Positions 6,393 through 27,930 are shown, counted from the first letter of the stretch. The stretch is DNA of 64,000 nt from a bacterium (GCA_963675755.2 CAXXMD010000002.1:2080001-2144000), one strand, 5' to 3'. Notes: generated by a model not told the origin, from the sequence alone. Made by a program: numbers and translations.

Positions 6393-6447
6393 TTGATCGC
6401 TCGGCATATTCATGCCGGGCGGAATATTCATCCGGGACATTCGTCCC
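6393..6447 (+). repeat. Two-hairpin repeat family A copy 1
   Basis: TTGATC-GCTCGGCAT-ATTC-ATGCCGGGC-GGAATAT-N6-GGGAC-ATTC-GTCCC. Confidence 0.92.
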
Positions 6448-6580
6448 GCTGGGTTTCACTCAATGGATCTCACGGTAAAATCTTAATCCAGATTTTTAAA
6501 TTCAGGATAAACAGTGTTTATCCTGTCCTTTCCGTCCAAAACCAGAGTTTTTAAAGGAGTAATGTCGAGCGGAATATTCG

Positions 6581-6643
6581 GCCCTTTTCCTTCGATACAT
6601 CCGTCCGCAAGCTGGCGGACGGGATGCCTGGGGTATATTAATT
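6581..6643 (-). repeat. Repeat family B copy 4 (inverted, 5' flank degenerate)
   Basis: Minus strand reads ...CCGTCCGC-CAGCTT-GCGGACGG-ATGTATCGAAGGAAAAGGGC. Confidence 0.75.
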
Positions 6644-6694
6644 CAGGTAACATCCATTTTCGACCAAAATCAGCATATAGAACAGAAGAAACTC

Positions 6695-7534
6695 TCAGTT
6701 TTTTTTTGTTACATAAACACATCGAAAGCCGATAAACTCCATTTCCAGACTTTTATCATCAGCATAACTGCGATATCCCGTATGTGAGTAAAAAGCACAA
6801 TTTTTATTAATGGATGCACCACGAATCACCTTAACATATCCTTCTTTGGGGCCAAGTGGATTTTTAGAAGTGGATTCGAAATAATAATCCCTGCTGAACC
6901 AGTCCATACACCACTCCTGTACATTTCCTCCCAAGTCATATATACCGTATTTATTTGGCGGAAATTGTCCTACAGGTTCAAGATTATAATCCTGACAATT
7001 ATCCTGCCCCATTATCAGTTCATCTCCCCAGGGATACAAGTAATCCTTACCACCTTTGGCTGTTTTCTCCCACTCTGCTTCTGTAGGTAGACGCTTTCCA
7101 TAAAACTTTGCATATTCAAAGGCATCCTGCCAAGTAACTCCATATACTGGGTAATCTTTCATTCCCGGTTCAAAATGATCTTTCCAATTACCTTTGGGAG
7201 TATACCCGGACTTTTCAACAAATTTCAAATATTGACCAAAGGTTACCTCATATTTATCAATATAAAAATCATCAATCCATACCTTATGTTTCGGTTGCTC
7301 ATCTTTAAACCAGTCTAAACTAGAAAAACCAGGAGCTTCATTTACTATGTATTCAGCCCGTTCTTCAGTTATTCCCATTTCAAATTGACCAGCAGGTATT
7401 AACACCATGTCATTTAATCTGGGATTCTTTTGATTTTGTGAACAATTATTAAAAAATAATACAATAAACACTAATGAAATAATTTTATAATCATTCATTG
7501 CTACCCCTATAGTTTTGCTGTTAAACAAGATCAT
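6695..7534 (-). CDS. Formylglycine-generating-enzyme (FGE/SUMF1) domain putative lipoprotein
   Basis: Motifs IPAGQFEMG, DEQPKHKV, YEVT, RLPTEAEWE, YPWG, PPNKYGIYDLGGNVQEW, IGFRCV. The true start may be 7498. Confidence 0.9.
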   Translation of the reverse strand: MILFNSKTIGVAMNDYKIISLVFIVLFFNNCSQNQKNPRLNDMVLIPAGQFEMGITEERAEYIVNEAPGFSSLDWFKDEQPKHKVWIDDFYIDKYEVTFGQYLKFVEKSGYTPKGNWKDHFEPGMKDYPVYGVTWQDAFEYAKFYGKRLPTEAEWEKTAKGGKDYLYPWGDELIMGQDNCQDYNLEPVGQFPPNKYGIYDLGGNVQEWCMDWFSRDYYFESTSKNPLGPKEGYVKVIRGASINKNCAFYSHTGYRSYADDKSLEMEFIGFRCVYVTKKN

Positions 7535-7549
7535 GGCCTAATGGATAAT

Positions 7550-7942
7550 TTATAAATGCCAAATGCGCAAACCTTTTATATATTCAAAATGTTTATCGAA
7601 TGTTATTAAAGTTGACCCAATTTCCATTGCATGCGAAGCAATCCAGATATCCTGAATAGGAATAGGTGTTCCTGAAAGTTTAAGATCGTTTTTGATCATA
7701 CTAAAATACTCGGCAGTTTCCAATGTTGAATTTAATAACTGAACGGTAGGTTTTTCCAAAAATTTATTCAGGATTTCACGATTTTGTATCTCTTTACTAC
7801 CACCCCGAAATCCGTAATATAGTTCAGCAATAACAAAAACAGACATGTATACCATTTCTGCATTTGAAATCGCCTCTAACACAATTTTATTGCCTGCCAG
7901 CAAATGACTATACGCATTAGTATCAATTAATAAACGTTTCAT
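7550..7942 (-). CDS. vapC: VapC/PIN-domain toxin
   Basis: LLIDTNAY...IAELYYG...IPIQDIWIAS...LITFDKHF. The ATG at 7942 overlaps the antitoxin stop (ATGA). Confidence 0.92.
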   Translation of the reverse strand: MKRLLIDTNAYSHLLAGNKIVLEAISNAEMVYMSVFVIAELYYGFRGGSKEIQNREILNKFLEKPTVQLLNSTLETAEYFSMIKNDLKLSGTPIPIQDIWIASHAMEIGSTLITFDKHFEYIKGLRIWHL

Positions 7943-8181
7943 TTCCATTGATCCGGTTCAATTTCACGGAGTTCTGCTGTCTTTTGATCAAACACATTTG
8001 CCTCATCTTTAGACCAAACACCACAAAACTCTGAAAAATCCTGTTTTCTTTTATTCAAGCCAAGAGCATCGTACAAAAGCATTTTTATAGTCTTGTTCAG
8101 ACTTGCACCGTTTTTTCTAGCCAATTCTTCAATTTTTCTACTTGCTTGACTATCAATATTATGTACAGTTATAGATTTCAT
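7939..8181 (-). CDS. Antitoxin (FitA-like ribbon-helix-helix)
   Basis: MKSITVHNID...LARKNGASLNKTIKMLL. About 80 aa, directly upstream of and coupled to vapC. Confidence 0.85.
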   Translation of the reverse strand: MKSITVHNIDSQASRKIEELARKNGASLNKTIKMLLYDALGLNKRKQDFSEFCGVWSKDEANVFDQKTAELREIEPDQWK

Positions 8182-8347
8182 GCCACACCTATGAATCAAT
8201 TTATGGTTCAAAATACACTAAAAAATAGTTCAATATATATTTAAATGCAAGTATTTATTTAATTATCTCAAGTCACTATTATTAGCAACGCTTATTGAAA
8301 ATCCAAAGCAAGAAGCAACCTCAGAAATCCCCCATTCGCTTAATTTC

Positions 8348-8515
8348 TCCCGCTGGCTTTTACTTAATGGACCTCACAGTAAAACCTTAATCCAGATTTT
8401 TAAATACCGATCGCTCGGCATATTCATGCCGGGCGGAATATTAATCCGGGACATTCGTCCCGCTGGCTTTTACTTAATGGACCTCACGGTAAAACCTTAA
8501 TCCAGATTTTTAAAT
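8348..8515 (+). repeat. 58-bp direct repeats (8348-8405, 8458-8515; third copy 6444-6501) enclosing family A copy 2 (8407-8461)
   Basis: TCCCGCTGGCTTTTACTTAATGGACCTCACRGTAAAACCTTAATCCAGATTTTTAAAT occurs twice with one mismatch. A2 is nearly identical to A1. Confidence 0.92.
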
Positions 8516-8634
8516 TAAGGATAAACAGAGTTTTGGATGGAGTAAAAAACACCATTCTACTTGTTGACATGAAAACAGTAAATCATTAATCAAATTTTCT
8601 GTTTCATCCGAGCAAATCCGTGGCTAAATAAATG

Positions 8635-8659
8635 GGTTCCAAGGCAGAGCCTTTGAACC
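8635..8659. repeat. Isolated REP-like palindrome
   Basis: GGTTCCAAGGC-AGA-GCCTTTGAACC, an 11-bp arm with one mismatch. Only one copy seen. Confidence 0.5.
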
Positions 8660-8710
8660 AGATAATATATACAGCGTTTTAGACAGAGTATTATCGAGCG
8701 GAACATTCAG

Positions 8711-8770
8711 GCCCTTTTCCTTCGATACATCCGCCCGCCATCTGACGGACGGACACTCTGGAACCGGGCC
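8711..8770 (-). repeat. Repeat family B copy 5 (inverted)
   Basis: Minus strand reads CCGGTTCCAGAGTG-TCCGTCCGTC-AGAT-GGCGGGCGGA-TGTATCGAAGG. Confidence 0.82.
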
Positions 8771-8781
8771 TCGTTTTTTTT

Positions 8782-8811
8782 CTGATAACTGATTACTGAA
8801 TACTGACTACT
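8782..8811 (+). repeat. 7-nt-period array (CTGAnnA)
   Basis: ctgataa ctgatta ctgaata ctgacta ct, next to the stop codon at 8818. Confidence 0.88.
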
Positions 8812-8817
8812 TTTGCT

Positions 8818-11800
8818 TCACGGCAAAATCATCCACGACGGAGGAAACGCCTGCTTTTCATATCCCGGCCCCTCAAAATAAAAATCCATGGACTCAGAGC
8901 CAACAACCTCATAATAGAACAAGTCCAAATCATGACGACCTTTGTCCAACTGGATCTTGCCGGAATTAATACGTTTAGCATGCGCGCCTGCGTCATAAAC
9001 AATCGTCTTGCCGTCTATTTTCAACACACACCCGTCATTGGCATCACCATAAAAGGTATAAACACCGGGTGTCATAATATCAAATTTACCCTCAAAACGG
9101 ATTGCCACCTGATCACCCCGCCTGTCAATCTTGTTTACGTCAAACTGAAAAGTTTTTCCGGTAGATGCCACTGTAAACTCGTAGGTCTCGGGATCAGGAC
9201 CCAAATCGCCCCACTCTCCATGATACACAGTATACGCAATACCATTTACAGCAGGATCAATAAAACGGACATTGGCAGATGCAGGATAACTGGTTATAAA
9301 TCCCTCTTTGACCATAATCGCCTGAATGGTGCAGTTTTCTTTAATCTCTACCGGACCCGTATATTTCTCAGATTCTACAGTAGGCTCGCTTCCATCCAAT
9401 GTGTAATACACATCCGCATGATTTGTAGCCCGAATGGGTATGTATGCTGTATCATGAATGTGATACAATGTATCCACCTTGTCAATAATCGGTACAGGTA
9501 AACGGACCGGCTTTATCAACTCTGCGGCTCCCTGGGACTTGAATGTATATTTCCCTGAACCCACGTTGTAAACCGCTCTATTGTCCTCTGTTCTGACAAA
9601 TTGGGCGGCATCACTATTGACTGACACCAGCTCCTCGCTCGTTGCAGGTACATAAATTGTTGCCGTTGTATTGACAGGTATTTCTACATCCATTTTCAGG
9701 TTGCCCTTTTTATCAAGCTTCCAATGGCTTTTGATCATACCGTAAAATGTTTCTGTCCCGGCGTTCACATAGGTCAAATCCCCACAAAGAACGGGTTTGA
9801 TGATTATGTGCTTGAATCCCGGATTTTCAGGATCCGGATTAATACCTGCCGGTGCTTTAAAGAACCAACGGATTGTGCTTCCATACATAGGGTGACTGTG
9901 CGAAAGCTTGCCGTCCCAATATTCCCACAGCGTAGTAACGCCTTTGCCAAGGATATAGTGACCATAGCTGGGAAAATCATGCTGGTTCATCATCATAAAC
10001 GCAAGGTCTTCTCGACCCATTTCCGTCAGCATTTCCATTACAAGCGGCAGACCCAAAATACCGGTATCCAGATGTTCACGATTTTTAACAACATTCTCTA
10101 CCATGCTGTCAAAAACACCATCAATATTCTCTTCTTTTACCATACCAAATGCCAATGGAAACGCATCCGCGCCCTGGTAACTGGTCCAGTATTGTTGATT
10201 TTCTTCATTATAATACCGCTTGTCCAGTGCAGTTTTTATCTTTTCCATGAGGGCCAAATGTTCATCACGGTCAGCGGCTTTACCCAGCACATCCGCGGTC
10301 TGGGCCACCAGCTTTGCACAGAAATAATAATAACTGGTATTCACCAAAGGTTCCGGCAATTCCATGGGATAAGGAGTAGCCCAATCTCCCAGGCACCATG
10401 CGTTTGGTTCTTCCCGAACGACAATTCCATCCTTGTCTGTGCGAGTACCCAGGTATTCCACCCACTGCTTCATACCTTTATAATGTTTCTGCAATATCTG
10501 TGTATCACCATAATAGACATAATAGTACCAGGGAACAATTACATACGCTGAACCCCATGCAGGGCCACCGCCTCCGCCTTCATACGGAGCGGTATGTGGA
10601 ACAAATCCGGTTTTCTTGTTACGGGCATCGTCAATATCGTTTACCCATTTGTCATAAAACCGGGTCATGTCAAAATTAAAAATAGACGACTCTACCAGAA
10701 TCGATCCGTCACCAGTGTAGCCCAAACGTTCGCGGTGCGGACAATCACTGCTAAAGCTGCCATGCATATTGCCCAACTGGGTACGGATATAATTCTCATG
10801 GATCTTGTTAAACAGCTCGTTCGAGCAGTTGAAATAACCTACTGTATCCATAACAGTATTTACAACCCGCCCGCTGATGCTGTTTAGGTCGAGTGGAACG
10901 GACGATCCCCGGATCTCAACAGTCCTGAACGCATGCCAGGTAAAACTGGGTTCCCAGGTTTCCTGCCCGCCTTTACACATATACTGATCACCCTGGCTGT
11001 AATCGCTGCCCAGTTCTTCGATAAAACGCAAATGCAATGTATCTCCGCGATTACCGTTAATGTTCAATTTTACCCAACCCGAGAACATGTGTCCAAAGTC
11101 ATAGACATAAACATTATCTTCCGTATGTCTTACCGCAACCGGTTTTACGGTATTGATAATACCGTCCCTTGGCGCAAGCTGGGGCTGCAGTTTGCCATCC
11201 GGTGCTTTTAATAGATTGGCCTGCTGCCAACCCGATGCATCGTATCCCGCTGAACTCCAGCCGGGCATTTCCATACGGGCATCATAGTATTCACCGGAGA
11301 ATAGTCCGTTATGACGAATGGGTCCCTCTGTGGTAAATTTCCACGTATCATCACTCACTACCCGTTGACGTTCACCATCGGCATAATCAATTTCGATCTG
11401 CATGATAAATCGTGGTGTATTGTACCACATTCTGCCCTCGGCACCCCGGTCACGTTGATTATACCAGCCATTGCCAAGAACAATTCCCACAGCATTGGCG
11501 CCCTGCTCAAGCTGACTGGTTATATCATATATATTGTAGAAAACCCGTGTAGAGGATTGATCATCGTAATGATAGATCAAACCCGAAAGATTGCGTTTTT
11601 CATAATTGGTCTGCGCGGGGACCAGTTCGTCATTACCGGTCTCGCTTCCGTTCAAAAACATTTCATAATATCCCAAACCCGTAACATAAACCCGAGCTTT
11701 TTTAATGGGCTTGTTAATAGTAAATTCTTTGCGGAACCACGGGGCCGGGCCGGTTTTCTTCTCGACAGGTTCTTTGATTTCCGATACCCCCACCCATTTT

Positions 11801-12237
11801 GCCTGCCAGTCAGCAGGGTTTATCAGGGCCATCTCCCATTTAGCGGTTTCACTCCATTCAGATTCTGCACCCTGCTCGTCCCACACCTGTACTTTCCAGA
11901 ATACCTGTTGGCGTGAATTCAATTCTTTACCACCCCAGGGAATGTTTACGGATTGGTCCGAATCCACCTTACCGCTGTCCCACAAATCCGCGGAACCTTC
12001 TGTTAACAGATCAGGACTGCTTGCCGCCAGGATATGATATGCGGTCTGGATGCGATTGTACCCGCCTGCTGCCAGTTTCCAGCTTAATCGGGGAGTAGCG
12101 CTGTCAATCCCCAACGGATCGCTTATATATTCGCAACGCAGATCGTTGACCTGCATGGATTTATTCATGGATTGACAACCGGAAAATAAAAATACCAACA
12201 TCAGTACAAACAGCAAGACAGGAATGGTCTTTTTCAT
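8818..12237 (-). CDS. GH78 alpha-L-rhamnosidase-family lipoprotein 2
   Basis: Same motifs as paralog 1. Start moved to MKKTIPV at 12237 because it matches the paralog 3 N-terminus and RBS. Lipobox FSGC. Confidence 0.92.
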   Translation of the reverse strand: MKKTIPVLLFVLMLVFLFSGCQSMNKSMQVNDLRCEYISDPLGIDSATPRLSWKLAAGGYNRIQTAYHILAASSPDLLTEGSADLWDSGKVDSDQSVNIPWGGKELNSRQQVFWKVQVWDEQGAESEWSETAKWEMALINPADWQAKWVGVSEIKEPVEKKTGPAPWFRKEFTINKPIKKARVYVTGLGYYEMFLNGSETGNDELVPAQTNYEKRNLSGLIYHYDDQSSTRVFYNIYDITSQLEQGANAVGIVLGNGWYNQRDRGAEGRMWYNTPRFIMQIEIDYADGERQRVVSDDTWKFTTEGPIRHNGLFSGEYYDARMEMPGWSSAGYDASGWQQANLLKAPDGKLQPQLAPRDGIINTVKPVAVRHTEDNVYVYDFGHMFSGWVKLNINGNRGDTLHLRFIEELGSDYSQGDQYMCKGGQETWEPSFTWHAFRTVEIRGSSVPLDLNSISGRVVNTVMDTVGYFNCSNELFNKIHENYIRTQLGNMHGSFSSDCPHRERLGYTGDGSILVESSIFNFDMTRFYDKWVNDIDDARNKKTGFVPHTAPYEGGGGGPAWGSAYVIVPWYYYVYYGDTQILQKHYKGMKQWVEYLGTRTDKDGIVVREEPNAWCLGDWATPYPMELPEPLVNTSYYYFCAKLVAQTADVLGKAADRDEHLALMEKIKTALDKRYYNEENQQYWTSYQGADAFPLAFGMVKEENIDGVFDSMVENVVKNREHLDTGILGLPLVMEMLTEMGREDLAFMMMNQHDFPSYGHYILGKGVTTLWEYWDGKLSHSHPMYGSTIRWFFKAPAGINPDPENPGFKHIIIKPVLCGDLTYVNAGTETFYGMIKSHWKLDKKGNLKMDVEIPVNTTATIYVPATSEELVSVNSDAAQFVRTEDNRAVYNVGSGKYTFKSQGAAELIKPVRLPVPIIDKVDTLYHIHDTAYIPIRATNHADVYYTLDGSEPTVESEKYTGPVEIKENCTIQAIMVKEGFITSYPASANVRFIDPAVNGIAYTVYHGEWGDLGPDPETYEFTVASTGKTFQFDVNKIDRRGDQVAIRFEGKFDIMTPGVYTFYGDANDGCVLKIDGKTIVYDAGAHAKRINSGKIQLDKGRHDLDLFYYEVVGSESMDFYFEGPGYEKQAFPPSWMILP

Positions 12238-12327
12238 AGAGTCCCTCAAAATTTTAACAGAAAAGTGTATTTTTAATAAAATCAATTTTTACAAATTAAG
12301 CAAAGGTAATAATTCAACAATCTGGTT

Positions 12328-12450
12328 CTCAGTACCTGGTCATCAGTTTTCAGTAAAGGCTCAAGATATGGGTCTATTACAATAGTAATATATCTAATAA
12401 AGATAGTTTTTTTCTGACTACTGACTACTGACTACTGATAACTGATTACT
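12328..12450. repeat. Opposed 7-nt-period arrays (nnnCAGT units at about 12328-12354; CTGAnnA units at 12414-12450)
   Basis: ctcagt acctggt catcagt tttcagt ... ctgacta ctgacta ctgacta ctgataa ctgatta ct. Confidence 0.75.
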
Positions 12451-12461
12451 TTTCCCATCTA

Positions 12462-15400
12462 TTATTTCCCGTCTCCGGGAATTGTCATCCACTCTGGTGG
12501 GAACATTTGCTTTTCAAATCCCGGACCTTTGAAATTAAAATCCATACTTTCAGAACCGGTTACTTCATAATAAAACAAGTCCAAATCATGACGGCCGGCT
12601 TTTAGGTCTATTTCATCAAATTCTTTACGTGCAGCATAAGCACCCGCATCATATACCACCGTTTTTCCATCGATTTTCAGTACACAACCATCGTTGGCAT
12701 TCGCATAAAAAGTATATTTACCCGGTGTTTTTATATCAAATGAACCCTCAAAGCGGATAGCCACATAATCACCGCGCCTCTCAATCTTGTTCACATCAAA
12801 TTCAAAGGTCTTGCCGGTAGATGCCACTTTGTATTTATCAGATTCCGGATCAGGACCCAAATCGCTCCATTCTCCCTCATAAACCGTATAAGCAATTCCA
12901 TTTACAGCAGGATCAATAAATCGGACCTTGTCGGCTCTATCATAACTGTTTATAAATCCATCTTTAATAGCAACCGCCCGGATTATTGTATTGTCTTTAA
13001 TTTCTAAAGGTCCGGTATATTTAATGGAATTCCCGTCAGGTATGCTGCCATCAAGAGTATAATAGATATCTGCATTATTACTGGCAGAAATCTCTATATT
13101 CGCTGTATTGGGTTTAAAGTAAAGCGTATCCACATTTGTTATAATAGGAGTGGGCAAATGTACGGGCTTCATCAATTTCGCTGCTCCCTGGGACTTGAAT
13201 GTATATACCCCTGATCCCACCTTGTAAACCGCTTTATTGTCCTCAATTCTGACAAATTGGGCGACCTCACTATTGACTGACACCAGCTCCTCGCTCGTTG
13301 CAGGTACGTAAACAGTTGCTGTTGTATTGACAGGTATTTCCACATCCATTTTCAGGTTGCCATTTTTATCGAGTTTCCAATTGCTCTTGATTAGGCCGTA
13401 AAACGATTCGGTCTGTGTATTCACAAAAGTCAAATCACCACACAGTATGGGTTTGATGATGATGTGCTTGAATCCAGGATTGGCAGTATCAGGATTAATA
13501 CCCCCAAGCCCTTTATAAAACCATCGTATCACACTGCCAAACATGGGGTGACTGTGAGAACTTTTACCACTAAATTCTTCCCACAAGGTGGTTACCCCTT
13601 TACCCAGTATATAATTACCAAAACTCGGAAAATCACGCTGGTTCATCATCATAAACGCAAGATCTTCACGTCCCATATCTGTTAATACTTCCAGTACAAG
13701 CGGTGTACCCAAAATACCGGTATCCAGATGCTCACGGTTCTTGACAATATTTTCAACCATGCTGTCGAAAACACCATCAATATTCTCATTTTTAACCATA
13801 CCAAATGCCAATGGAAAAACATCCGCGCCCTGATAACTGGTCCAGTATTGTTGATTTTTTTCATTGTAATAGCGTTTATCCATTGCAGATTGAATTTCAT
13901 CCAATAGTGCCGAATAATGGTCTCTGTCTTTAGGTTTGTCAAGAACATCGGCAATCTGTGCAACCAGTTTTGCGCAATAATAATAATAACCGGTATTCAC
14001 CAATGGTTCGGGCAGTTCTATCGCCTCGGGAGTAACCCAATCACCCAGGCACCATCCGTTTGGTTCTTCACGCACCACAATGCCTTCCTTGTCTGTGCGT
14101 GTCCCCAAATAGTCCACCCATTGTTTCATACCTTCGTAATGCTGCTGCAATATTTGTGTATCGCCATAATAAACATAATAAAACCAGGGAACAATCACAT
14201 ATGCCGAACCCCATGCAGGTCCACCGCCTCCACCTTCGTACGGAGCGGTATGCGGAACAAATCCGGTTTTCTTGTTACGGGCATCATCAATATCATTTAC
14301 CCATTTGTCATAAAACCGGGTCATGTCAAAATTAAATATAGATGATTCAACCAAAAGTGATCCGTCACCGGTGTACCCCAGACGTTCACGGTGCGGACAA
14401 TCACTGCTAAAGCTGCCATGCATGTTGCCCAACTGGGTACGAATATAGTTATCGTGTATTTTATTAAACAGCTCGTTCGAGCAGTTGAAATAACCTACTG
14501 TATCCATAACGGTATTTACAACCCGCCCGCTGATGCTGTTTAGGTCGAGTGGAACGGACGATCCCCGGATCTCTACCGTCCTGAACGCATGCCAGGTAAA
14601 GCTGGGCTCCCAACTCTCGCTGCCACCCTTGCATATATACTGATCAGCCTGATTGTAATCGCTGCCCAGTTCTTCGATAAAACGCAAATGCAATGTATCT
14701 CCACGATTCCCGTTTATGTTCAACTTTACCCATCCCGAGAACATGAGTCCAAAGTCATAGACATAAACATTATCTTTTGTATGTTTGACGGATACCGGTT
14801 TTATCGTATCAATAATGCCGTCTCTTGGCGCAAGTTGAGGATACAGCTTGCCATCCGGTGCTTTTAACAGATTGGCCTGCTGCCAGCCAGACGCGTCAAA
14901 ATCCGCAGTGCTCCAGCCGGGCATTTCCATGCGGGCATCATAATGCTCGCCGGTGAATAGTCCATCATGACGAATGGGCCCCTCTGTGGTATACTGCCAG
15001 GAACGATCACCAACCAGAGTTTGACGTTCACCATCCTTATATTCGATCTCCAACTGTAGAAAAAATCTCGGTGTATTGAACCACATACGTCCTTCAGATA
15101 CCCGATCACGTTGATTGTACCAGCCATTGCCCAGCACAATTCCAGCCGCATTCTTGCCCTGTACGAGCTGGCTGGTTACATCATAAATATTGTACAATAC
15201 CCGGGTAGTAGATTGATCATCATAATCATAAATCAGTTTTGTCAAATCTCGCTTTTCATAATTAGTTTGCGCGGGGACCAGTTCGTCATTACCGGTTTTG
15301 CTGCCATTCAAAAACAATTCATAATATCCCAAACCGGTAACATAGACGCGGGCTTGTTTAACGGATTTGTTAATTGTAAATTCTTTACGAAACCATGGGG

Positions 15401-15893
15401 CAGGACCGGTTTTCATCTCGGCAGGTTCCTTGCTTTCCTCTACACCCACCCATTTGGCTTGCCATTCTTCCGCATTTAATAACGCCATCTCCCATTTGGC
15501 GGTTTCACTCCATTTAGACTCTGCTCCCTGCTCGTCCCACACCTGTACTTTCCAGAACACTTGTTGGCGTGAATTCAATTCTTTACCGCCCCAGGGAATG
15601 TTTACGGACTGGTCCGAATCCACCTTGCCGCTGTCCCACAAATCTGCAGAACCCTCAGATAACAAATCAGGACTGCTTGCCGCCAGGATATGATATGCGG
15701 ACTGGCTGCGATTATACCCGCCTGCTGCCAGTTTCCAGCTTAATCGGGGAGTAGTGCTGTCAATACCCAACGGATTGCCTATATATTCGCATCGCAGATC
15801 GTTAACTCGCATAGATTTGTTCATAGACTGACAACCGGAAAATAAAAATACCAACATCAGTACAAACAGCAAGACAGGAATGGTCTTTTTCAT
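12462..15893 (-). CDS. GH78 alpha-L-rhamnosidase-family lipoprotein 3
   Basis: SDCPHRERLGYTGD, TTLWEE, SHSHPMFG and a PA14 tail. Highly similar to paralog 2. Confidence 0.92.
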   Translation of the reverse strand: MKKTIPVLLFVLMLVFLFSGCQSMNKSMRVNDLRCEYIGNPLGIDSTTPRLSWKLAAGGYNRSQSAYHILAASSPDLLSEGSADLWDSGKVDSDQSVNIPWGGKELNSRQQVFWKVQVWDEQGAESKWSETAKWEMALLNAEEWQAKWVGVEESKEPAEMKTGPAPWFRKEFTINKSVKQARVYVTGLGYYELFLNGSKTGNDELVPAQTNYEKRDLTKLIYDYDDQSTTRVLYNIYDVTSQLVQGKNAAGIVLGNGWYNQRDRVSEGRMWFNTPRFFLQLEIEYKDGERQTLVGDRSWQYTTEGPIRHDGLFTGEHYDARMEMPGWSTADFDASGWQQANLLKAPDGKLYPQLAPRDGIIDTIKPVSVKHTKDNVYVYDFGLMFSGWVKLNINGNRGDTLHLRFIEELGSDYNQADQYICKGGSESWEPSFTWHAFRTVEIRGSSVPLDLNSISGRVVNTVMDTVGYFNCSNELFNKIHDNYIRTQLGNMHGSFSSDCPHRERLGYTGDGSLLVESSIFNFDMTRFYDKWVNDIDDARNKKTGFVPHTAPYEGGGGGPAWGSAYVIVPWFYYVYYGDTQILQQHYEGMKQWVDYLGTRTDKEGIVVREEPNGWCLGDWVTPEAIELPEPLVNTGYYYYCAKLVAQIADVLDKPKDRDHYSALLDEIQSAMDKRYYNEKNQQYWTSYQGADVFPLAFGMVKNENIDGVFDSMVENIVKNREHLDTGILGTPLVLEVLTDMGREDLAFMMMNQRDFPSFGNYILGKGVTTLWEEFSGKSSHSHPMFGSVIRWFYKGLGGINPDTANPGFKHIIIKPILCGDLTFVNTQTESFYGLIKSNWKLDKNGNLKMDVEIPVNTTATVYVPATSEELVSVNSEVAQFVRIEDNKAVYKVGSGVYTFKSQGAAKLMKPVHLPTPIITNVDTLYFKPNTANIEISASNNADIYYTLDGSIPDGNSIKYTGPLEIKDNTIIRAVAIKDGFINSYDRADKVRFIDPAVNGIAYTVYEGEWSDLGPDPESDKYKVASTGKTFEFDVNKIERRGDYVAIRFEGSFDIKTPGKYTFYANANDGCVLKIDGKTVVYDAGAYAARKEFDEIDLKAGRHDLDLFYYEVTGSESMDFNFKGPGFEKQMFPPEWMTIPGDGK

Positions 15894-17658: not shown

Positions 17659-17661
17659 CCC

Positions 17662-19391: not shown

Positions 19392-19409
19392 ATTATATCA
19401 ATTATTTAA

Positions 19410-19440
19410 TGTAGGGACCGATCTGAGACCGGTCCCTACA
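19410..19440. repeat. GTAG-type REP-like palindrome (may also terminate lctP)
   Basis: GTAGGGACCG-ATCTGAGAC-CGGTCCCTAC. A related copy lies at 21308-21336. Confidence 0.75.
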
Positions 19441-19457
19441 AATCCCCAATTCCTCAC

Positions 19458-19512
19458 TTGATCGCGATGCAGATTCCTGCATCGCGGAATATACACATGG
19501 GACATTCGTCCC
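19458..19512 (+). repeat. Family A copy 3
   Basis: TTGATC-GCGATGCAG-ATTC-CTGCATCGC-GGAATAT-ACACAT-GGGACATTCGTCCC. Confidence 0.92.
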
Positions 19513-19565
19513 AAATCATGATCTAACACATTCACCTATGGAATATATAACAGCTTGTAGCTTTC

Positions 19566-19753
19566 CGTCTCACATCTGCCGTCTTGCGTTTCTTCTGAAT
19601 ACTGAGCACTGATAACTTGATCGCGGTGCAGATTCCTGCATCGCGGAATATTGCTACGGGACATCTGTCCCGTTTTTCTGCATCTATCCGTGGCTAAAAG
19701 CTAATAGCTTATTAATGACAGCTTTTCTTCTGAATACTGAGCACTGATAACTT
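19566..19753 (+). repeat. Heptamer arrays plus perfect 30-bp direct repeat (19589-19618, 19724-19753) enclosing family A copy 4 (19617-19671)
   Basis: TTTCTTCTGAATACTGAGCACTGATAACTT occurs twice. A4 = TTGATC-GCGGTGCAG-ATTC-CTGCATCGC-GGAATAT-TGCTAC-GGGACATCTGTCCC. Confidence 0.92.
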
Positions 19754-21226
19754 TTATTTCCCCTCCGGCAACTCTACATCTTTACAATTCCGGGTCTGAA
19801 TCGGTGTTTTTGCAAGCAGACTCACATCATCCATTTTCCAGTTCACAGCATTGGTAATCTTGCCGCCATTCTGTGCTTCAATAGACACACGTTCCCAAAC
19901 CACATCCCGGATGGGTTTTTCTTCATACGCATTGGCATAAATCCCGATCCCCGCATTGGTTGCGGTTACATCCGAAATCCGGATATCATAAAACTCGGGA
20001 ATGCCCCGTTCCGGCGGATCGACTTTTGTCAGCATGGCTTTCCAGTGCGCCGGCCATTCCGATTCCGGAATATGCTCGGGACGCGGGGGATAACTGTATT
20101 CGGGAAACCAGTTCAACTCCCAATGAAACGGATTTTTCACACTGTCCATTTGGATATCATGAAACCAGACATTGCTGATCACACCGCCGCGCACCTTGGC
20201 GGATTTAAACCGGATACCGTTATTAGTCCCTCTGGCATCCAATCCGTACACTTCAATATTGTGCATCCCTCCCGAAGTCTCGCTGCCCAGGGTAATCAAA
20301 CCATGCCCCTTGCCGGTGATGCAATTGCGGACCACTATATTTTCAGCAGGACGGTTAACACGTAATCCGTCTGCGTCTCGTCCCGCTTTTAAACAGAAAT
20401 TATCATCATTACAGTCTATATCACAATCCTCAACCAATATATCTTGAGAAGAATCTATGTCAATGCCATCTGTACTGGGTCCATGCCCGCCAATGTTATT
20501 CCGAATGACAAGACCCTTTACATATACCCGCTCGCTGTAGGTCATGGTAACGGTCCAGAATCCCGACCGCTTGACCGTAAAGTCTGTCAAGCGCACATTT
20601 TTCGACTCGTACACAACAACGGGACGTACACGCTTTGCATCATAATCCACTGCCCAGCGCATGTTCTGTTGAGTATATGGTTCCAGCAGGGTAAAAAACT
20701 TGTCCCACCAGAATTTGCCGTTGCCGTCAATCATCCCCTTGCCCGTCACATGCGCATTTTCTACCTGGTAAATATTAATCAACGCCACGGGCCAGTCCAT
20801 TTCAATCCCCGCAATGCGTGTCCATTTGTCCGGAAATTCTTCATCCTTGTTTACAGCCTTTAGCACAACACCCGCATCCAGTCGCAGCTCTACATTGGAT
20901 TTGAGGAACAATGCCCCGCTCAAAACCGTACCTTCCGGCAGCGTTACAATCCCTCCGCCGGCGGCACTGGCCGCGTCAATAGCGGATTGGATCTGCTTTG
21001 TATTGATGGTCTTTCCATCCGCAACGGCACCATAATTCTCAGCGGCAAACACCGTCTGCGGTACTTGTCCAAAATTCGCATCATAAAAAATGGATTCCAG
21101 TTGCATCACCAGCTCACTCTTGCCGGATGAAACAGGCTCTCCACTCTGCGATTTACATAATAGAATAAATGGAAGAAAAACTACTAAACTCAGCCCCATC
21201 CACTTTTTCAGAGAAATAGTAACCAT
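19754..21226 (-). CDS. Glycoside hydrolase family 28 (polygalacturonase-like)
   Basis: STDGIDID, CNDDNFCLKAGRD, GHG..TLGSETSGG, GIRFKS and an N-terminal signal. Confidence 0.93.
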   Translation of the reverse strand: MVTISLKKWMGLSLVVFLPFILLCKSQSGEPVSSGKSELVMQLESIFYDANFGQVPQTVFAAENYGAVADGKTINTKQIQSAIDAASAAGGGIVTLPEGTVLSGALFLKSNVELRLDAGVVLKAVNKDEEFPDKWTRIAGIEMDWPVALINIYQVENAHVTGKGMIDGNGKFWWDKFFTLLEPYTQQNMRWAVDYDAKRVRPVVVYESKNVRLTDFTVKRSGFWTVTMTYSERVYVKGLVIRNNIGGHGPSTDGIDIDSSQDILVEDCDIDCNDDNFCLKAGRDADGLRVNRPAENIVVRNCITGKGHGLITLGSETSGGMHNIEVYGLDARGTNNGIRFKSAKVRGGVISNVWFHDIQMDSVKNPFHWELNWFPEYSYPPRPEHIPESEWPAHWKAMLTKVDPPERGIPEFYDIRISDVTATNAGIGIYANAYEEKPIRDVVWERVSIEAQNGGKITNAVNWKMDDVSLLAKTPIQTRNCKDVELPEGK

Positions 21227-21478: not shown

Positions 21479-21488
21479 AAAAAAACAC

Positions 21489-21517: not shown

Positions 21518-21580
21518 TAATCAGGGCCAAGGGGCAGATACGGAAGGATCAATTTACTACATATTCTTTGGGAGAGAACC

Positions 21581-24097: not shown

Positions 24098-24152
24098 CCA
24101 ACTCCCGTCCATGAGCGAGCGTCCCTCGGGGGGATAACTTTAAGGAAGAACA

Positions 24153-26579
24153 ATGAAAAATATTTTAAATTACTCAATACTATTACTTTTACTAGTACAT
24201 ATAAATGCATCAGCACAACACATCACAGACATCCTTGTCCACACCGAACCGGATTCTAACGATTTCAATGCCACCTCTACTTCCCTGCATGTGCTTTCAC
24301 CGGACAAATTTATGGTTATTTGGCTTGATGATCGTGGAGTTCCTGATCAGGCATGGGCAAATATCTTTGATCAAAATGGAAATGAATTGTATACACCCTT
24401 TAAAGTTCCGGGAGACACATATGTCTCGGCTGAAGATGATAAATATACCATCCTTAGTAAATATTACTCACAATCGGGATTCTTGGAAAACTATGATTTC
24501 CAACATTTTCAAAACGATACAAATATTACGAAACAAAAAGAGATTGAATCTATTTTTTATAATCCATGTGATTATTTTAATCCAATTGAAAAGTTTGAAC
24601 TTTATCGAACACAAGAAAGAAACATCTGGATCAAAAATAACTGTGGTTCTATAAATATTGCAATTCAAGATTCACATTTCTCAACTTTAATTCCTGATTT
24701 TTATCCACTATACATAGATTATTGGGATAATGAAAACAATCATGGTTACGAAGAACTCGTATCAAATTATTCGATAGCACAAAATGATGATAAAAGCCAA
24801 TCATGGATGCTAACACTTCACCCTGGAGTATTTTTAGATTTAATTGACATTGACAAACCGAGCCATTCAGATCTTATAGCAAAAAAAATATACCTGGACT
24901 CTATAGATTACGATTTTGAGCAATATTGGGCAAATGCTCAGATGATAACAGATAGCACTATCTTGTTCTTATGGGCAACAAGAGATACACTAAGAACAAT
25001 ACAACTGGATACAAGTAGTACAATTCTTGAAAAACAAAATTATTATATTGGTGACGAACAATACTATAGCGATATCTATCACATAAGCAATGAGTCAAAT
25101 AATATAAAATATTTGCTGGCAGGAAACCACTTTCGGGCAAAAATTATTAAAATTAAAGATGATCTGGTTGAATCCATATCTGATAATTATCTCGATTTGC
25201 CTCAATCGTTGAACCGCAAAAAGTTCACACAAATATTTTTAAATGAAAACGAGGAAATGTTTCTCCCAGCTGTTGATAACAATCAGGCAAAGCTATTCAA
25301 AATTAAAAATAATTCAATTTCACAGTTTAAAACGTTAAAAGCTCCTGATACCGGGGCCAACCAGGAATGCTCACATATTCGTTCTATTGACGATAATAAT
25401 TTTGCAGTCACATTTAAAGAGTCAGGTGTCTCTAAAACAGCTAAAATGTCAGTTTACGGCACCATTATTAATCAGGAAATGGATTTACCATCAGCCAATG
25501 GAATGTTTTTCAATAATGGGACAGAACTCGTAACTCTAGTCAAAAATATGGAATCTAATATTTTACAGATGAAAAAATATGATTTACAAACAAATACTAT
25601 ACTTTTAGAAAAAACACTGTTTGACTCTACTCTCACTTTTTATTTTGAAAAGCTAAATGATTCATCATTTGTTGTTTTTAATCTATTGGAAAACAGGATT
25701 CATTTTGCATTATTTAATTCTAACGGAGATATAATAGGTGAAACAAGTATCCTCAATCCATTTAACAACGGTGAACAATTTATAATAGCAAAATTACCTG
25801 ATACTAAAATCTGGTTTCATTCAAATTTTAATTATTTTTTATTTGATCCGCAATCATTTAGCGTTCAATCATTTTCGGGTTTATATGGGCAATCAAAATT
25901 TTTCCCGGTTACTGAATCCAAACTTGTCAATCACAGAAATGGTACGTTTACAATCATTGACACATCAGGAACGATTTTAAAACAACTCGAAACCTCATTC
26001 AATTATTATGGATCATTGAATGTTCTTCCTCTAAATGATGATACATTTTTGTTTAATTCTGCTTATTCAGCTAAATTTCAACTAATTACAACTGAATTAG
26101 AGTTTTACACACAAAGCACGCTAAGCTGTTTTCCGAAAAGAACTTTATATAACATGACTGATTTCACATATGAACGCATCGGCAACCACATCGTCTTTGC
26201 CTGTACCGATATCCGCGATACTGAAACCGGACAAAACGTCTATGCCAGTATTTTCAATATAAACGATCTCATCACCGGCATTGACGATGCCCCAATATCC
26301 CAGCAGGTGCCGAACCGGTTCAGCTTGTCCGAACCCTCACCCAATCCCAGCAGAGCGGGACAATCGATCTCCTTTCAACTGGATATACATAAACAATCCA
26401 AAATGGATTTTCAATTGTATAATATTCTGGGACAACGAATCCAAACTTTTAATCGGCAATTCAACGCGGGGCAACAGTCCGTCAGGTTCCAACTGCCCAA
26501 TCTGGCCGCCGGGATCTATTTTCTCAAAGCAACGGACAGCCAGCAAGCCATTATCAAAAAAATCGCAGTTGTTCGATAA
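24153..26579 (+). CDS. Secreted protein with T9SS type-A-like C-terminal sorting domain, paralog 2
   Basis: Same mature N-terminus (QHITDILV.TEPDSN) and near-identical last ~135 aa as paralog 1. Confidence 0.85.
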   Translation: MKNILNYSILLLLLVHINASAQHITDILVHTEPDSNDFNATSTSLHVLSPDKFMVIWLDDRGVPDQAWANIFDQNGNELYTPFKVPGDTYVSAEDDKYTILSKYYSQSGFLENYDFQHFQNDTNITKQKEIESIFYNPCDYFNPIEKFELYRTQERNIWIKNNCGSINIAIQDSHFSTLIPDFYPLYIDYWDNENNHGYEELVSNYSIAQNDDKSQSWMLTLHPGVFLDLIDIDKPSHSDLIAKKIYLDSIDYDFEQYWANAQMITDSTILFLWATRDTLRTIQLDTSSTILEKQNYYIGDEQYYSDIYHISNESNNIKYLLAGNHFRAKIIKIKDDLVESISDNYLDLPQSLNRKKFTQIFLNENEEMFLPAVDNNQAKLFKIKNNSISQFKTLKAPDTGANQECSHIRSIDDNNFAVTFKESGVSKTAKMSVYGTIINQEMDLPSANGMFFNNGTELVTLVKNMESNILQMKKYDLQTNTILLEKTLFDSTLTFYFEKLNDSSFVVFNLLENRIHFALFNSNGDIIGETSILNPFNNGEQFIIAKLPDTKIWFHSNFNYFLFDPQSFSVQSFSGLYGQSKFFPVTESKLVNHRNGTFTIIDTSGTILKQLETSFNYYGSLNVLPLNDDTFLFNSAYSAKFQLITTELEFYTQSTLSCFPKRTLYNMTDFTYERIGNHIVFACTDIRDTETGQNVYASIFNINDLITGIDDAPISQQVPNRFSLSEPSPNPSRAGQSISFQLDIHKQSKMDFQLYNILGQRIQTFNRQFNAGQQSVRFQLPNLAAGIYFLKATDSQQAIIKKIAVVR

Positions 26580-26603
26580 ACACTTTTAACGAGGTATACA
26601 CGA

Positions 26604-27677
26604 TTGAAATTTGCTTTTTACATTTTAATATTGATCATAATTTTTATGGCGTGTTCATTACCTGTAGAAGAGGAATCCTCAGAATATTTCTATTATGAAT
26701 CTTTTATTTCGCTTATTTCAATAGATGGAGAAAATTTTGAAACGCTTGTAAATCATGCCGGTGGTGTGGAAGCAACAAGCGCGGATATATATTGGTTGGG
26801 TGATAAATCCCAATTTCTAGTGAACCGTGATGATCTATATATTTACGATCTTGAAGGAACGCTTGTTAAAGAAATCAGAATACCGGACTGTAATATTGAC
26901 ATTGATACTAGTCCCAATGGGGATAATATAGCTATTAGATGTGGCGGTGACGGTTCAGATTTGTACATAATTGACACAGAATCATTTAAAATGAAAAAAA
27001 TCACAAATACGCCATCAATTGTCGAACGTTACCCACGTTTCTCAAGTGATGGTAAAAAAATTGTATATGTATGCGTATTTGATAAAGAGGACCAAGAGAA
27101 GCCAGCTATCAAATTGTATGATATGGATTCAGACAGCTCGGTAACGCTGATAACGGTAAAAGAGGAGAACCTGCATTCCAATCCCTTTGTATCGCCCTGC
27201 TTTGGTAAAAATGATGAAATACTTTATTATATGAACAACTATAATAAAGAGATAAATTACTCGGGCACAACAACGCTTTACAGTTATAATTTAATTACCA
27301 GCGAAATATCCGAAATTGACAAGAATGCTATCTGGTTTACAAAAATGCAATATGCCCCGGCTGGTGACCGGTTAGTTTATCTCACGAGAGAACCATTCTG
27401 CGGAATCAAAGTATTTGATGCAAACACACAAAGCTTTTATAATTTGGGAGATAAAATCCATGAAGAATGTAGGGCCATTGGCCCCAATCAGATACTGAAT
27501 ATAAATTCTCAAGGTACGCATGTTATCGCAGGAACTGATTATTGTAGCAGCACCCATATATATGCAATAGATATTGAAAAAGCAGAATACAAAGAAATTG
27601 CTTTGGGTACATCACCCGCATTGAACAATGATGACAAGACAATTTTATTTGTAAAAACATTTAAAAACAAATACTAG
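26604..27677 (+). CDS. TolB-like/PD40 beta-propeller lipoprotein
   Basis: Lipobox FMAC, with SPNGDNIA, PRFSSDGKKIVY and APAGDRLVY repeats. Confidence 0.75.
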   Translation: MKFAFYILILIIIFMACSLPVEEESSEYFYYESFISLISIDGENFETLVNHAGGVEATSADIYWLGDKSQFLVNRDDLYIYDLEGTLVKEIRIPDCNIDIDTSPNGDNIAIRCGGDGSDLYIIDTESFKMKKITNTPSIVERYPRFSSDGKKIVYVCVFDKEDQEKPAIKLYDMDSDSSVTLITVKEENLHSNPFVSPCFGKNDEILYYMNNYNKEINYSGTTTLYSYNLITSEISEIDKNAIWFTKMQYAPAGDRLVYLTREPFCGIKVFDANTQSFYNLGDKIHEECRAIGPNQILNINSQGTHVIAGTDYCSSTHIYAIDIEKAEYKEIALGTSPALNNDDKTILFVKTFKNKY

Positions 27678-27698
27678 AGTTCATTTCCTCAATACAAT

Positions 27699-27764
27699 TT
27701 GATCGCACGGCAATCCGACAACTTACGGATACCGTGTGGAATATATCATCGGGATATTTGTCCC
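27699..27764 (+). repeat. Family A copy 5 (elongated first stem)
   Basis: TTGATC-GCACGG-CA-ATCCG-ACAACTTA-CGGAT-A-CCGTGT-GGAATAT-ATCATC-GGGATATTTGTCCC. Confidence 0.88.
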
Positions 27765-27787
27765 GGATTACTGCATCCATCCGTGGT

Positions 27788-27930
27788 TTGATCGTGATGC
27801 AGATTCCTGCATCGCGGAATATTTATTTGGGACATTCATCCCGCTTGCCAGCATCCATCCGTGGCTAAAAGCTGATGGCTTATAGCTGACAGCTAACAGC
27901 TTTTCTTCTGATAACTGACAACTGATTACT
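27788..27930 (+). repeat. Family A copy 6 (27788-27842) followed by ATCCGTGG, an AGCTnnn array (27863-27901) and a CTGAnnA array (27908-27930)
   Basis: Module order and sequence match 19617-19753. Confidence 0.9.

Follow-up and report, generated by a model that had tools for sequence, protein, structure and literature searches.

Intergenic two-hairpin repeats of a Bacteroidota-like genome, probably REP-type elements tied to a clade of RAYT transposases

Two-hairpin elements at the locus

Six copies of a small two-hairpin element, referred to here as family A, lie on the + strand of the window, the 64,000-nucleotide stretch analysed from a 6.5-Mb Bacteroidota-like genome (G000) (Table 1). An earlier reading made without database searches (the sequence-only reading) had described these copies, and their positions were confirmed from the sequence, as were the details of their stems: stem 1 occurs in three distinct sequences, that of A5 being longer and nested; the outer pair of stem 2 is C-G, T-A or T-G; G-T wobbles occur in A1, A4, A5 and A6; and a C-A mismatch occurs once, in A6. 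The common layout consists of (T)TGATC, stem 1, GGAATAT, a 6-nt spacer and GGGAY-N4-RTCCC. The pattern GATCG-N18-40-CGGAATAT has five matches in the window (0.02 in shuffles, with 0 of 100 shuffles reaching five); A5 escapes it and reads TGGAATAT at the corresponding place.

All six copies are arranged as singlets or tandem pairs, with no doublets among them. The suggestion that they are antisense to most genes was borne out for A1 and A2, which are antisense to both neighbours, but not for A3 to A6, which lie downstream of a co-oriented gene and between convergent genes. A1 and A2 share a 3′ flank and are therefore parts of a larger duplicated unit.

Table 1. Coordinates of family A copies, associated repeats and the RAYT gene of the same genome. 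Positions without a contig name are those of the window.
Feature	Coordinates	Strand	Description
Copy A1	6393..6448	+	TTGATC tag; stem 1 of 9-10 bp with one G-T; GGAATAT linker; 6-nt spacer; R1 85.6 bits; orthologue in G001
Copy A1, stem 2	within 6393..6448	+	GGGAC/GTCCC plus outer C-G pair
Copy A2	8407..8462	+	Nearly identical to A1; starts CCGATC; R1 79.8 bits
Copy A3	19458..19513	+	GCGATGCAG-type stem 1; T-A outer pair in stem 2; R1 82.4 bits; orthologue in G001
Copy A4	19617..19672	+	One G-T in stem 1; T-run after stem 2
Copy A5	27699..27765	+	Longer nested stem 1; TGGAATAT linker; stem 2 GGGAT/GTCCC; R1 61.6 bits
Copy A6	27788..27843	+	One T-G in stem 1; C-A mismatch in stem 2; missing from G001 site
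Common 3′ flank of A1 and A2	6449..6551 (A1), 8463-8530 (A2)	+	
Extra copy of last stem-2 bases and shared 3′ flank	8350..8406	+	Directly upstream of A2; tandem duplication without element body
Clade RAYT	contig C3:340671-341201		177 aa; NF047646 116 bits (cut-off 80); HFH and YIHYNP motifs

A conserved fold with covarying stems

Structure was assessed family-wide on an alignment of 111 copies from several genomes. Paired bases accounted for 95.5% of cells, compared with 75.3% in shuffles (0 of 500 reached 95.5%) and 27–43% with slid partners, and double changes were found at 14 of 16 pairs. The covariation of both stems proposed for the six copies is thus upheld in them and across the family. 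G-T/T-G cells outnumber A-C/C-A cells (86 vs 34), and this excess, together with the covariation, supports the proposal that selection acts on a folded single strand. Folding with DNA parameters yields two hairpins, A1 included. The element has a sharp 5′ boundary at (T)TGATC, and each position of the G-A-T-C foot is kept in 104–109 of the 111 copies. The linker GGAATAT and the spacer length, described as invariant, are so among the window copies but not genome-wide, where variants such as GTAATAT and GGGATAT occur and the spacer varies somewhat in length. A pseudoknot between the loop of stem 1 (ATTC) and the linker (GAAT) was rejected, with 67.9% of cells paired vs 66.8% in shuffles and no covariation.

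Copy number and genomic placement

A search of G000 with the covariance model R1 returned 102 matches at E≤1, of which 86 had E<1e-4. Family A comprises roughly 90 copies of small intergenic two-hairpin repeats, and the six window copies are genuine members; the long-stem layout of A5 is found in further copies of the same genome. Outside the crude ORF calls, which cover about 90% of the genome, lie 78 of 81 nhmmer copies. Only 6 of these 78 extragenic copies are found between divergent genes; the upstream gene is on the same strand for 55, and 23, A1 and A2 among them, are antisense to it. Neighbours within 200 nt form 19 convergent, 18 tandem and 5 divergent pairs, and the arms of the doublets belong to different sub-types, A (GGGAC/GTCCC) and B (CAGGAC/GTCCTG). 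Hairpin 1 is also found alone, in truncated copies and in a large sister family of single hairpins; no independent dispersed family of hairpin 2 was found. Orientation showed no bias with respect to GC skew (43 vs 38 copies; 19 vs 12 clusters).

The Rfam scan that the sequence-only reading had proposed gave no match for the elements, the window yielding only a tRNA at gathering thresholds and the region 19400-19760 only two chance-level 12-bit matches at E≤10. Three long motif strings of family A did not occur in the literature searched, and viral contigs searched for a phage origin gave 0 matches. One metagenome contig matches family A.

These data bear on a reading of the elements as structured RNA acting after transcription, either as a 3′-UTR stabiliser or terminator or as a small RNA, with any link to a transposase being incidental. 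The 55 extragenic copies on the strand of their upstream gene would be sense-transcribed 3′ trailers, the G-T excess suits RNA equally with single-stranded DNA, A4 carries a T-run after stem 2, and E. coli REPs (repetitive extragenic palindromes) are reported to influence mRNA stability and termination (PMC3733652). Against this stand the 23 antisense copies, the numerous inverted doublets and the lack of any Rfam match. Orthologous copies are conserved no better than their flanks (496/544 vs 1267/1389 positions, both 91.2%), and an RNA role leaves the specific flanking of one RAYT clade, described below, unexplained. A terminator function in particular was rejected: the region holds 14 terminator-like sites vs 16.1 in shuffles, A4 is the sole one of the six that clearly resembles an intrinsic terminator, and a + strand scan flagged stem 2 of A4 and, weakly, of A2 only. 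Nothing specific favours the unlisted ncRNA motif that had been among the candidates; we regard the RNA reading as improbable, and an RNA role may perhaps be a secondary effect of a REP and not a true alternative.

Presence and absence of copies in related genomes

The orthologous site in G001, a genome of the same genus, lacks A6. A contig from run X4 joins 27784 to 27857 with four letters (TTGA) between, but X4 is probably of the same species as G001 and therefore lends no independent support. The site without A6 in both keeps exactly the TTGA where the element begins in G000; the junction in G001 is imperfect, with 3 extra bases that differ and a 14-bp motif repeated on both sides. When the flanks of 29 copies were mapped to syntenic G001 regions, most proved to be rearranged repeat mosaics, and A6 alone gave a usable junction. 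Besides A1, A3 and A4, three of four singlets examined are also found in G001, and recent mobility of family A is putative because most examined singlets are common to both genomes. In the G001 orthologue of A4, both partners of a stem 1 pair have changed in a compensatory manner.

Larger differences are also bounded by the elements. A 2,054-bp segment (6552-8605) between A1 and A2 is missing from G001, and a second G000-specific segment bounded by direct copies, of 3.1 kb, was found in locus L094. Such segments, together with the palindromic arms and the invariant GATC, could be taken to indicate a site read in double-stranded DNA, be it the operator of a dimeric regulator, a site for a nucleoid protein or methylase (GATC), or an integron-like attC bounding cassettes. 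We give this reading almost no credence. A double-strand reader would conserve sequence without strand asymmetry, whereas the stems vary yet stay paired and favour G-T over A-C, and ordinary repeat recombination is sufficient for the boundaries of the A1/A2 segment, given about 160 bp of homology there. The attC version was rejected in its own right, as no integron integrase was found (best TIGR02249 score 81 bits vs a cut-off of 265) and the element consists of two separate hairpins, not one long imperfect palindrome.

Association with a clade of RAYT genes

Which genes are enriched beside the elements had been left as a question by the sequence-only reading. In relatives, elements of this type directly flank the genes of one clade of REP-associated tyrosine transposases (RAYTs, NCBIfam NF047646). 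A profile of three RAYTs (named A3, and distinct from copy A3) was run against 61 genomes, and six genes reached at least 245 bits: three in G004 and one each in G018, G014 and G000. Elements of the R1 type lie within about 100 nt of five of them, all outside G000; at four, an element (+) precedes and an element (−) follows the gene (+), and the fifth, a G004 gene, has one on its upstream side only. A set of 80 loci drawn from other assemblies added two more clade RAYTs with inverted elements on both sides, at L115 and L135, which brings the total to six genes flanked on both sides (G018, two of G004, G014, L115 and L135) and one, the third G004 gene, on one side. Lower-scoring RAYT loci searched with R1 had no adjacent match (L211 has non-adjacent ones), and RAYTs of other clades carry different flanking palindromes, either GTAG-tagged or CGTTCCCAAAC-type.

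Elements and enzyme do not always occur together. Of the 16 genomes with R1 matches at E≤1e-4, a set that includes fragmented assemblies, three (G000, G014 and G018) hold a clade RAYT of at least 245 bits. No clade RAYT was found at E≤1e-25 in G001, a single contig with a completeness rating of 100% and 55 copies, nor in the fragmented assemblies G011 (69 copies), G013 (41), G016 (32), G042 (28) and G025 (24). Conversely, G004 has three clade RAYTs and no R1 match at E≤1e-4, its elements being diverged (17–29 bits).

The clade RAYT of G000 itself (Table 1) sits on contig C3 inside an array of more than 20 single hairpins, which carry the same GATCG tag and stem foot (CGTGA...TCACG) as many family A copies and score only 14.7–20 bits with R1. 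No full two-hairpin copy lies directly beside it, the nearest being about 21 kb away. It aligns weakly, over the Y-motif region (E 0.0088), to PDB 4ER8, the structure of E. coli TnpAREP with its REP bound. Another RAYT of this genome, at C2:1359648-1360193 (NF047646 178 bits; 4ER8 E 3.5e-35), was the first candidate for the cognate enzyme, given the presence of family A copies within 1–1.5 kb of it. It was rejected, as its immediate inverted flanks are GTAG-footed palindromes, likewise at its orthologues in six other genomes.

Two-hairpin flanks of a similar kind were found beside related RAYTs in Pedobacter/Mucilaginibacter, an Armatimonadota MAG and Scalindua. Inverted flanks were present at 53 of the 80 loci, 32 of these having at least two hairpins within 80 nt, and of 11 elements picked by hand after inspection of 29 loci, 9 folded as two hairpins. 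A control on 33 evaluable loci showed no excess of structure on the 3′ over the 5′ side (Wilcoxon p 0.59 and 0.23). For the clade as a whole, a further hairpin on the 3′ side of the first is accordingly not established; this layout is limited to the elements recognised by R1 or by visual inspection.

The combination of two differing hairpins behind a sharp 5′ boundary would also suit a cargo-free miniature transposon of the IS200/IS605 type, similar to PATEs, in which hairpin 1 is the left end and hairpin 2 the right end and a small single-stranded circle inserts 3′ of TTGA(T). The TTGA retained exactly at the A6-less site in G001 and X4 agrees with such insertion, and so does the lack of an independent family of hairpin 2. 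The clade-associated genes, however, score 109–116 bits as RAYTs (cut-off 80) and only 20–31 bits on the IS200 transposase model NF033573 (cut-off 55), and the genes lie between whole inverted units and not between left and right ends on one strand. IS200/IS605-type elements have an orientation bias relative to GC skew, which is absent here. The occurrence of hairpin 1 alone, in truncated copies and the sister family, and the imperfect A6 junction weigh against this model as well, and we consider it highly unlikely.

We favour, with a probability of roughly 80%, the explanation that family A is an unusual form of a familiar kind of element, namely REP-type repeats of single-stranded DNA that are associated with a domesticated HUH transposase (RAYT). 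Of the candidates put forward earlier, a non-autonomous HUH-transposase substrate is the one supported, both by the direct flanking of a single clade of RAYTs (Y1 HUH) in relatives and by the C3 RAYT lying in an array with the same GATCG tag and foot. The elements are hairpin-forming imperfect palindromes, present in many copies that are nearly all extragenic, and in relatives they flank RAYTs in inverted orientation; within G000 such flanking is seen only for the related single-hairpin family. With whole units inverted on either side of the gene, unlike an IS with differing left and right ends, the layout looks like a REPtron. Weighing against this explanation are the lack of a full copy beside the C3 RAYT, the poor match between genomes with elements and genomes with clade RAYTs, the missing orientation bias, the single and imperfect case of presence and absence, the large share of examined singlets held in common with G001, and a foot other than the canonical GT[AG]G. 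The sequence-only reading had recognised no named family, which holds for Rfam, and had tied novelty to the lack of a REP match; with elements that are REP-like, that novelty is largely gone.

Comparison with known REP systems

The foot of family A is GATC in place of the GT[AG]G of REPs, which excludes the canonical REP classes and leaves the "atypical" class of subclass 2.6 open. The kind to which family A belongs is already known, since Quentin et al. (2018, PMC6006769) report, in the main text, that TnpAREP genes of subclass 2.6 (Bertels group 5), mostly from Bacteroidetes, have on their flanks atypical secondary structures that lack GT[AG]G, and that copies of these are found elsewhere in the genome. 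Their Table 1 gives the motifs NH[LIV]H, WQ and YIH[QN]NP and a length of about 179 aa. The RAYTs associated with family A agree in size (about 180 aa), Bacteroidota host, non-GT[AG]G flanks and copies elsewhere, and those of two relatives (L077 and L078) carry the N-H-x-H HUH motif, WQ and YIHNNP. By motif and length alone, the G004 protein fits (NHLH, YIHNNP, 183 aa), that of G018 is close (NHMH, YIHNNP, 182 aa) and that of G000 differs in both motifs (NHFH, YIHYNP, 177 aa). The main text of that study gives neither consensus nor architecture for the atypical structures, whereas the family A unit is defined by a GATC(G) foot, a 9-10-bp stem 1, GGAATAT, a 5-6-bp stem 2 and about 90 copies.

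Family A resembles the REP/BIME and TnpAREP system of E. coli in its extragenic imperfect palindromes with a conserved 5′ foot, high copy number, mosaics of sub-types in alternating orientation, and a transposase gene between inverted copies. It differs in the foot (GATC(G) vs GTAG), in having two distinct hairpins and a conserved linker vs one bulged hairpin, and in a RAYT of another clade. With the REPINs of P. fluorescens (Bertels and Rainey 2011, PMC3116915), it shares frequent inverted doublets (19 convergent pairs), a single-copy RAYT and apparently vertical inheritance, as judged from the orthologous copies present also in a sister species. The window copies, by contrast, are singlets or tandem pairs, and doublet arms in family A are of differing sub-types (A and B). 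The ends of IS200/IS605 elements and PATEs are similar in that a Y1 HUH enzyme recognises single-stranded hairpins and the element may begin right after a short conserved flank, but the family A enzyme scores as a RAYT, its gene lies between inverted whole units and a replication-strand bias is absent.

A proposed mechanism

Each unit would be a non-coding stretch of about 55–60 nt, and its top strand, once single-stranded, would fold into two hairpins behind the GATC(G) foot. Its spread and shaping are most likely due to a RAYT/TnpAREP (HUH Y1) of the clade of C3:340671-341201. By analogy with E. coli TnpAREP and REP (PDB 4ER8), the enzyme, acting on single-stranded DNA, would bind the tag together with the stem 1 foot and then cut and rejoin nearby, which could give rise to singlets, tandem copies and tail-to-tail doublets; the single-stranded state, tag recognition, catalysis and the role of hairpin 2 are what we infer from these observations. 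Variants of the stem sequence would represent sub-lineages, each of which needs pairing in order to be copied, and this would explain the covariation without present-day selection at each site. Once inserted, copies would be mostly static, most examined singlets being present also in a sister species lacking a RAYT of this clade, and they would serve as substrates for recombination, as in the 2-kb segment between A1 and A2.

A bolder version of this explanation is that a distinct RAYT clade, extending beyond Bacteroidota, requires the two-hairpin unit as a bipartite substrate. This would constitute a second mode of REP recognition, unlike the single GTAG hairpin of E. coli, and the unit would be the first defined consensus for the "atypical" REPs of subclass 2.6. 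We offer it tentatively and consider it doubtful.

Conclusions

To our knowledge, nearly all that is known of REPs and RAYTs comes from the GTAG-footed single hairpins of Proteobacteria. In the case of the RAYT clade centred on Bacteroidetes, the flanking structures are described merely as "atypical" in the main text of the survey (PMC6006769). Family A is not a new kind of system. It provides a concrete architecture backed by covariation, along with candidate enzymes (C3:340671-341201 and the directly flanked genes of G018 and G014), so that the rules of recognition can be tested with oligonucleotides. The repeats also account for assembly breaks and intergenic mosaics in related genomes, and mark sites of repeat-mediated gene gain and loss such as the segment between A1 and A2.

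Layout and setting of the window copies

Inspection of the sequence bore out six family A copies on the + strand, at the positions proposed in the sequence-only reading (Table), together with their pairing details, their wobbles and the lone C-A mismatch of A6. A MAFFT alignment of the six gave a common layout of (T)TGATC, stem 1, GGAATAT, six variable bases and stem 2. Stem 1 comprises 9–10 bp closed by a loop of 4 nt, A5 having a longer, nested version, and stem 2 comprises 5–6 bp (GGGAY-N4-RTCCC and an outer pair). In the window, five matches to GATCG-N18-40-CGGAATAT were found, versus 0.02 in shuffles. The claim of a + strand mostly antisense to the genes here was only half right: it holds for A1 and A2, which are antisense to their neighbours, and fails for A3–A6, which lie 3' of a co-oriented gene, between convergent genes. 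Family A copies in the window matched no known Rfam family; over the whole window a tRNA was the sole match, with nothing credible across A3/A4.

Several other features were observed in the window. Runs of a 7-nt unit (CTGAYWA, + strand reading), often preceded by a T-run, lie just past the stop codon of each of four genes on the minus strand (ends 8818, 12462, 19754 and 27946); contig depth is raised at these runs, indicating a motif that recurs across the genome. A4 and A6 have in common a downstream module, and C(C/T)GTGG(C/T)TAA motifs, similar to its CATCCGTGGCTAAAAGC motif, adjoin several further family A copies elsewhere in G000. The GTAG-footed palindrome directly upstream of A3 resembles a canonical REP with a "double foot", which places at least two REP classes in one spacer. 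A GH28 gene lies near the three GH78 genes, as do two proteins bearing type IX secretion sorting domains, and the region therefore looks like a polysaccharide-degradation locus. The sorting domains, along with the glycoside hydrolases, point to a Bacteroidota host.

Table. Coordinates of features in the window (G000:C2:2080001-2144000) and elsewhere in the genome under study (G000) and a same-genus genome (G001)
Feature	Position	Strand	Remarks
Family A copy A1	6393-6448	+	
Family A copy A2	8407-8462	+	
Family A copy A3	19458-19513	+	
Family A copy A4	19617-19672	+	
Family A copy A5	27699-27765	+	
Family A copy A6	27788-27843	+	
GH78 alpha-L-rhamnosidase paralogues	2691-6095; 8818-12285; 12462-15893	-	PA14 and Fn3-associated domains
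Variable segment	6552-8605		2,054 bp
FGE-sulfatase-like gene	6695-7534	-	within variable segment
PIN-domain gene	7550-7948	-	within variable segment
Small ORF	7939-8211	-	within variable segment; overlaps PIN-domain gene, upstream of it
CTGAYWA runs	8770-8812; 12405-12452; 19725-19757; 27903-27935		
Motif 3' of A1, A2	6505-6522; 8516-8534		GGATAAACAG(T/A)GTTT
GTAG-footed palindrome	19411-19439		~10-bp arms; GTAG one end, CTAC other
A4/A6 downstream module	19676-19745; 27846-27905		CATCCGTGGCTAAAAGC motif, then AAAAGCT...AGCTTTT inverted repeat
RAYT-like gene	G000:C2:1359648-1360193		178 bits; GTAG-footed REPs, also at orthologues elsewhere
RAYT-like gene	G000:C2:1813559-1814101		95.8 bits; flanks, CTCCGTCCGAAAC-type palindrome
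RAYT-like gene	G000:C3:2392807-2393238		65 bits, below 80-bit cut-off; flanks, TTGCCCGGCACC-type palindrome
Candidate RAYT gene	G000:C3:340671-341201		116 bits; HFH and YIHYNP motifs; array of >20 GATCG-footed single hairpins
GTAG-type RAYT orthologue	G001:C1:6442346-6442799		split between two frames; G000 protein halves matched at 83% and 86% identity
Hairpin-1-only module and full copy	G001:C1, L102:14770-14880		syntenic with G000:C3:376738

Family A across the genome and its pairing

The covariance-model search suggested by the sequence-only reading recovered many further copies in G000 (6.48 Mb, 3 contigs, about 39% G+C): the model built from the six window copies, R1, gave 102 matches at E≤1, of which 86 had E<1e-4, and iterated nhmmer gave 81 copies. 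Copies form local clusters with stem variants in common, and two sub-types, A (CGGAATAT with GGGAC/GTCCC) and B (GGRATAT with CAGGAC/GTCCTG), are frequently arranged as tail-to-tail pairs. Among neighbours at most 200 nt apart, 19 pairs were convergent, 18 tandem and 5 divergent. Crude ORF calls span about 90% of the genome, and 78 of 81 copies fell outside them; of these 78, 55 were co-oriented with the upstream gene and only 6 lay between divergent genes. Copy orientation was unrelated to GC skew (replication strand) in G000 (43 vs 38), and hairpin 2 was not found there as a separate dispersed family.

Pairing was assessed on 111 copies from G000 and relatives. Standard pairs filled 95.5% of cells versus 75.3% in shuffles (0/500 reaching the observed value) and 27–43% with slid partners. 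The covariation noted from the six copies was upheld, with both-side changes at 14 of 16 pairs. Figures of this sort are inflated, because the alignment was fitted to the covariance model and the copies are related; stem 1 nonetheless has four or five pair types at several positions. The excess of G-T/T-G cells (86) over A-C/C-A cells (34) in the family alignment points to the strand as drawn as the folding strand. A loop-linker pseudoknot was rejected, being without covariation support.

A RAYT clade beside two-hairpin elements

The suggestion of an HUH-transposase substrate is supported, as a REP/RAYT system (RAYT, REP-associated tyrosine transposase), by two-hairpin elements beside the RAYTs of one clade. 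Profile A3 (distinct from copy A3), made from the C3:340671 gene and its two best relatives, found six genes at ≥245 bits in 61 genomes: three in G004 and one each in G018, G014 and G000. Each of the five outside G000 lies within about 100 nt of R1-type two-hairpin elements: four are flanked on either side, as element(+), gene(+), element(-), and the fifth upstream only. Stem sequences there are unlike those of G000 while the layout is kept. Among 80 loci of other assemblies, two more of this type occurred, L115 and L135, the latter from Armatimonadota. No lower-scoring RAYT locus searched with R1 had an adjacent match, and other RAYT clades have GTAG-type or other palindromes beside their genes.

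Two hairpins were also seen by eye in RAYT-proximal inverted flanks of Pedobacter/Mucilaginibacter, Scalindua and other loci (29 inspected), and in 9 of 11 chosen elements upon folding. In an automated pass over the 80 loci, 53 had inverted flanks, 32 of these with at least two hairpins. In a control on 33 evaluable loci, structure on the 3' side did not exceed that on the 5' side. The bipartite layout is therefore secure within the R1-detectable group and no more than suggestive outside it.

G000 itself has four RAYT-like genes by NF047646 (NCBIfam RAYT model, cut-off 80 bits), each beside its own palindrome family. Upstream of the C3:340671 gene its array is directly oriented; downstream of the gene are inverted variants. 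The hairpins of the array have the GATCG foot and stem base CGTGA...TCACG in common with many family A copies, and are without hairpin 2. The motif 3' of A1 and A2 is similar to the GGATAAACTCTGTTTAT repeat flanking the C2:1813559 RAYT-like gene. Three observations weaken the link between family A and the clade RAYT. No complete two-hairpin copy flanks the C3:340671 gene. Of the 16 genomes with R1 matches, only 3 had the clade RAYT, although several copy-rich genomes in which it was not found are fragmented assemblies and may still carry it. It was not found in G001, which is complete and carries 55 copies, and whose single good RAYT match (L086) is orthologous to the GTAG-type gene but frameshifted, and probably a pseudogene.

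Turnover between two genomes of the genus

G000 and G001 are about 90–92% identical over the syntenic regions examined. At orthologous G001 sites, copies are present for A1, A3 and A4 and for 3 of the 4 singlets checked in other regions, which dates most insertions to before the two species split. A6 is missing from G001, which has four bases (TTGA) in place of 72 in G000. A contig of sequencing run X4 has the identical A6-less junction; X4 is probably the same species as G001, and hence this junction is not independent. The A6 junction is unclean, with three differing bases and a 14-bp motif repeated either side.

The variable segment is missing at the syntenic G001 site and is bounded by A1 and A2, direct repeats with about 160 bp of common sequence; its presence/absence is what repeat recombination would produce, and L094 holds a 3.1-kb case of the same kind. 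The small ORF within it may encode the antitoxin of the PIN-domain gene. At L102, G001 has a hairpin-1-only module, about 85 nt of unrelated sequence and a full copy; the single G000 copy, with stem halves like the two G001 hairpins, suggests deletion or recombination between adjacent hairpins.

Over ten orthologous pairs, elements (496/544) and flanks (1267/1389) were each 91.2% identical. The A4 pair shows a compensatory double change, and several G001 copies have changes that break stems. As a whole, the comparison fits elements that needed to pair for copying and drift afterwards, not an RNA gene under strong constraint.

Relation to described REP/RAYT systems

TnpAREP subclass 2.6 (Bertels group 5), in the account of Quentin et al. 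(2018, PMC6006769), is mainly from Bacteroidetes and about 179 aa long, with motifs NH[LIV]H, WQ and YIH[QN]NP; from manual inspection, its flanks hold "atypical secondary structures" without GT[AG]G, with further copies in the genome. The relatives' RAYTs fit these motifs closely, whereas the C3:340671 gene fits more poorly. Abundant flanking 16-mers are reported for group 5 in the consulted part of Bertels et al. (2017, PMC5581495), and the available text of Di Nocera et al. (2013, PMC3733652) classifies GTAG- and CGTC-tagged repeats and does not mention GATC. By analogy with E. coli TnpAREP, the element would act in a single-stranded state, with tag recognition, cleavage and a part played by hairpin 2 as predicted steps. 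Family A is of a REP/RAYT kind already known but poorly described.
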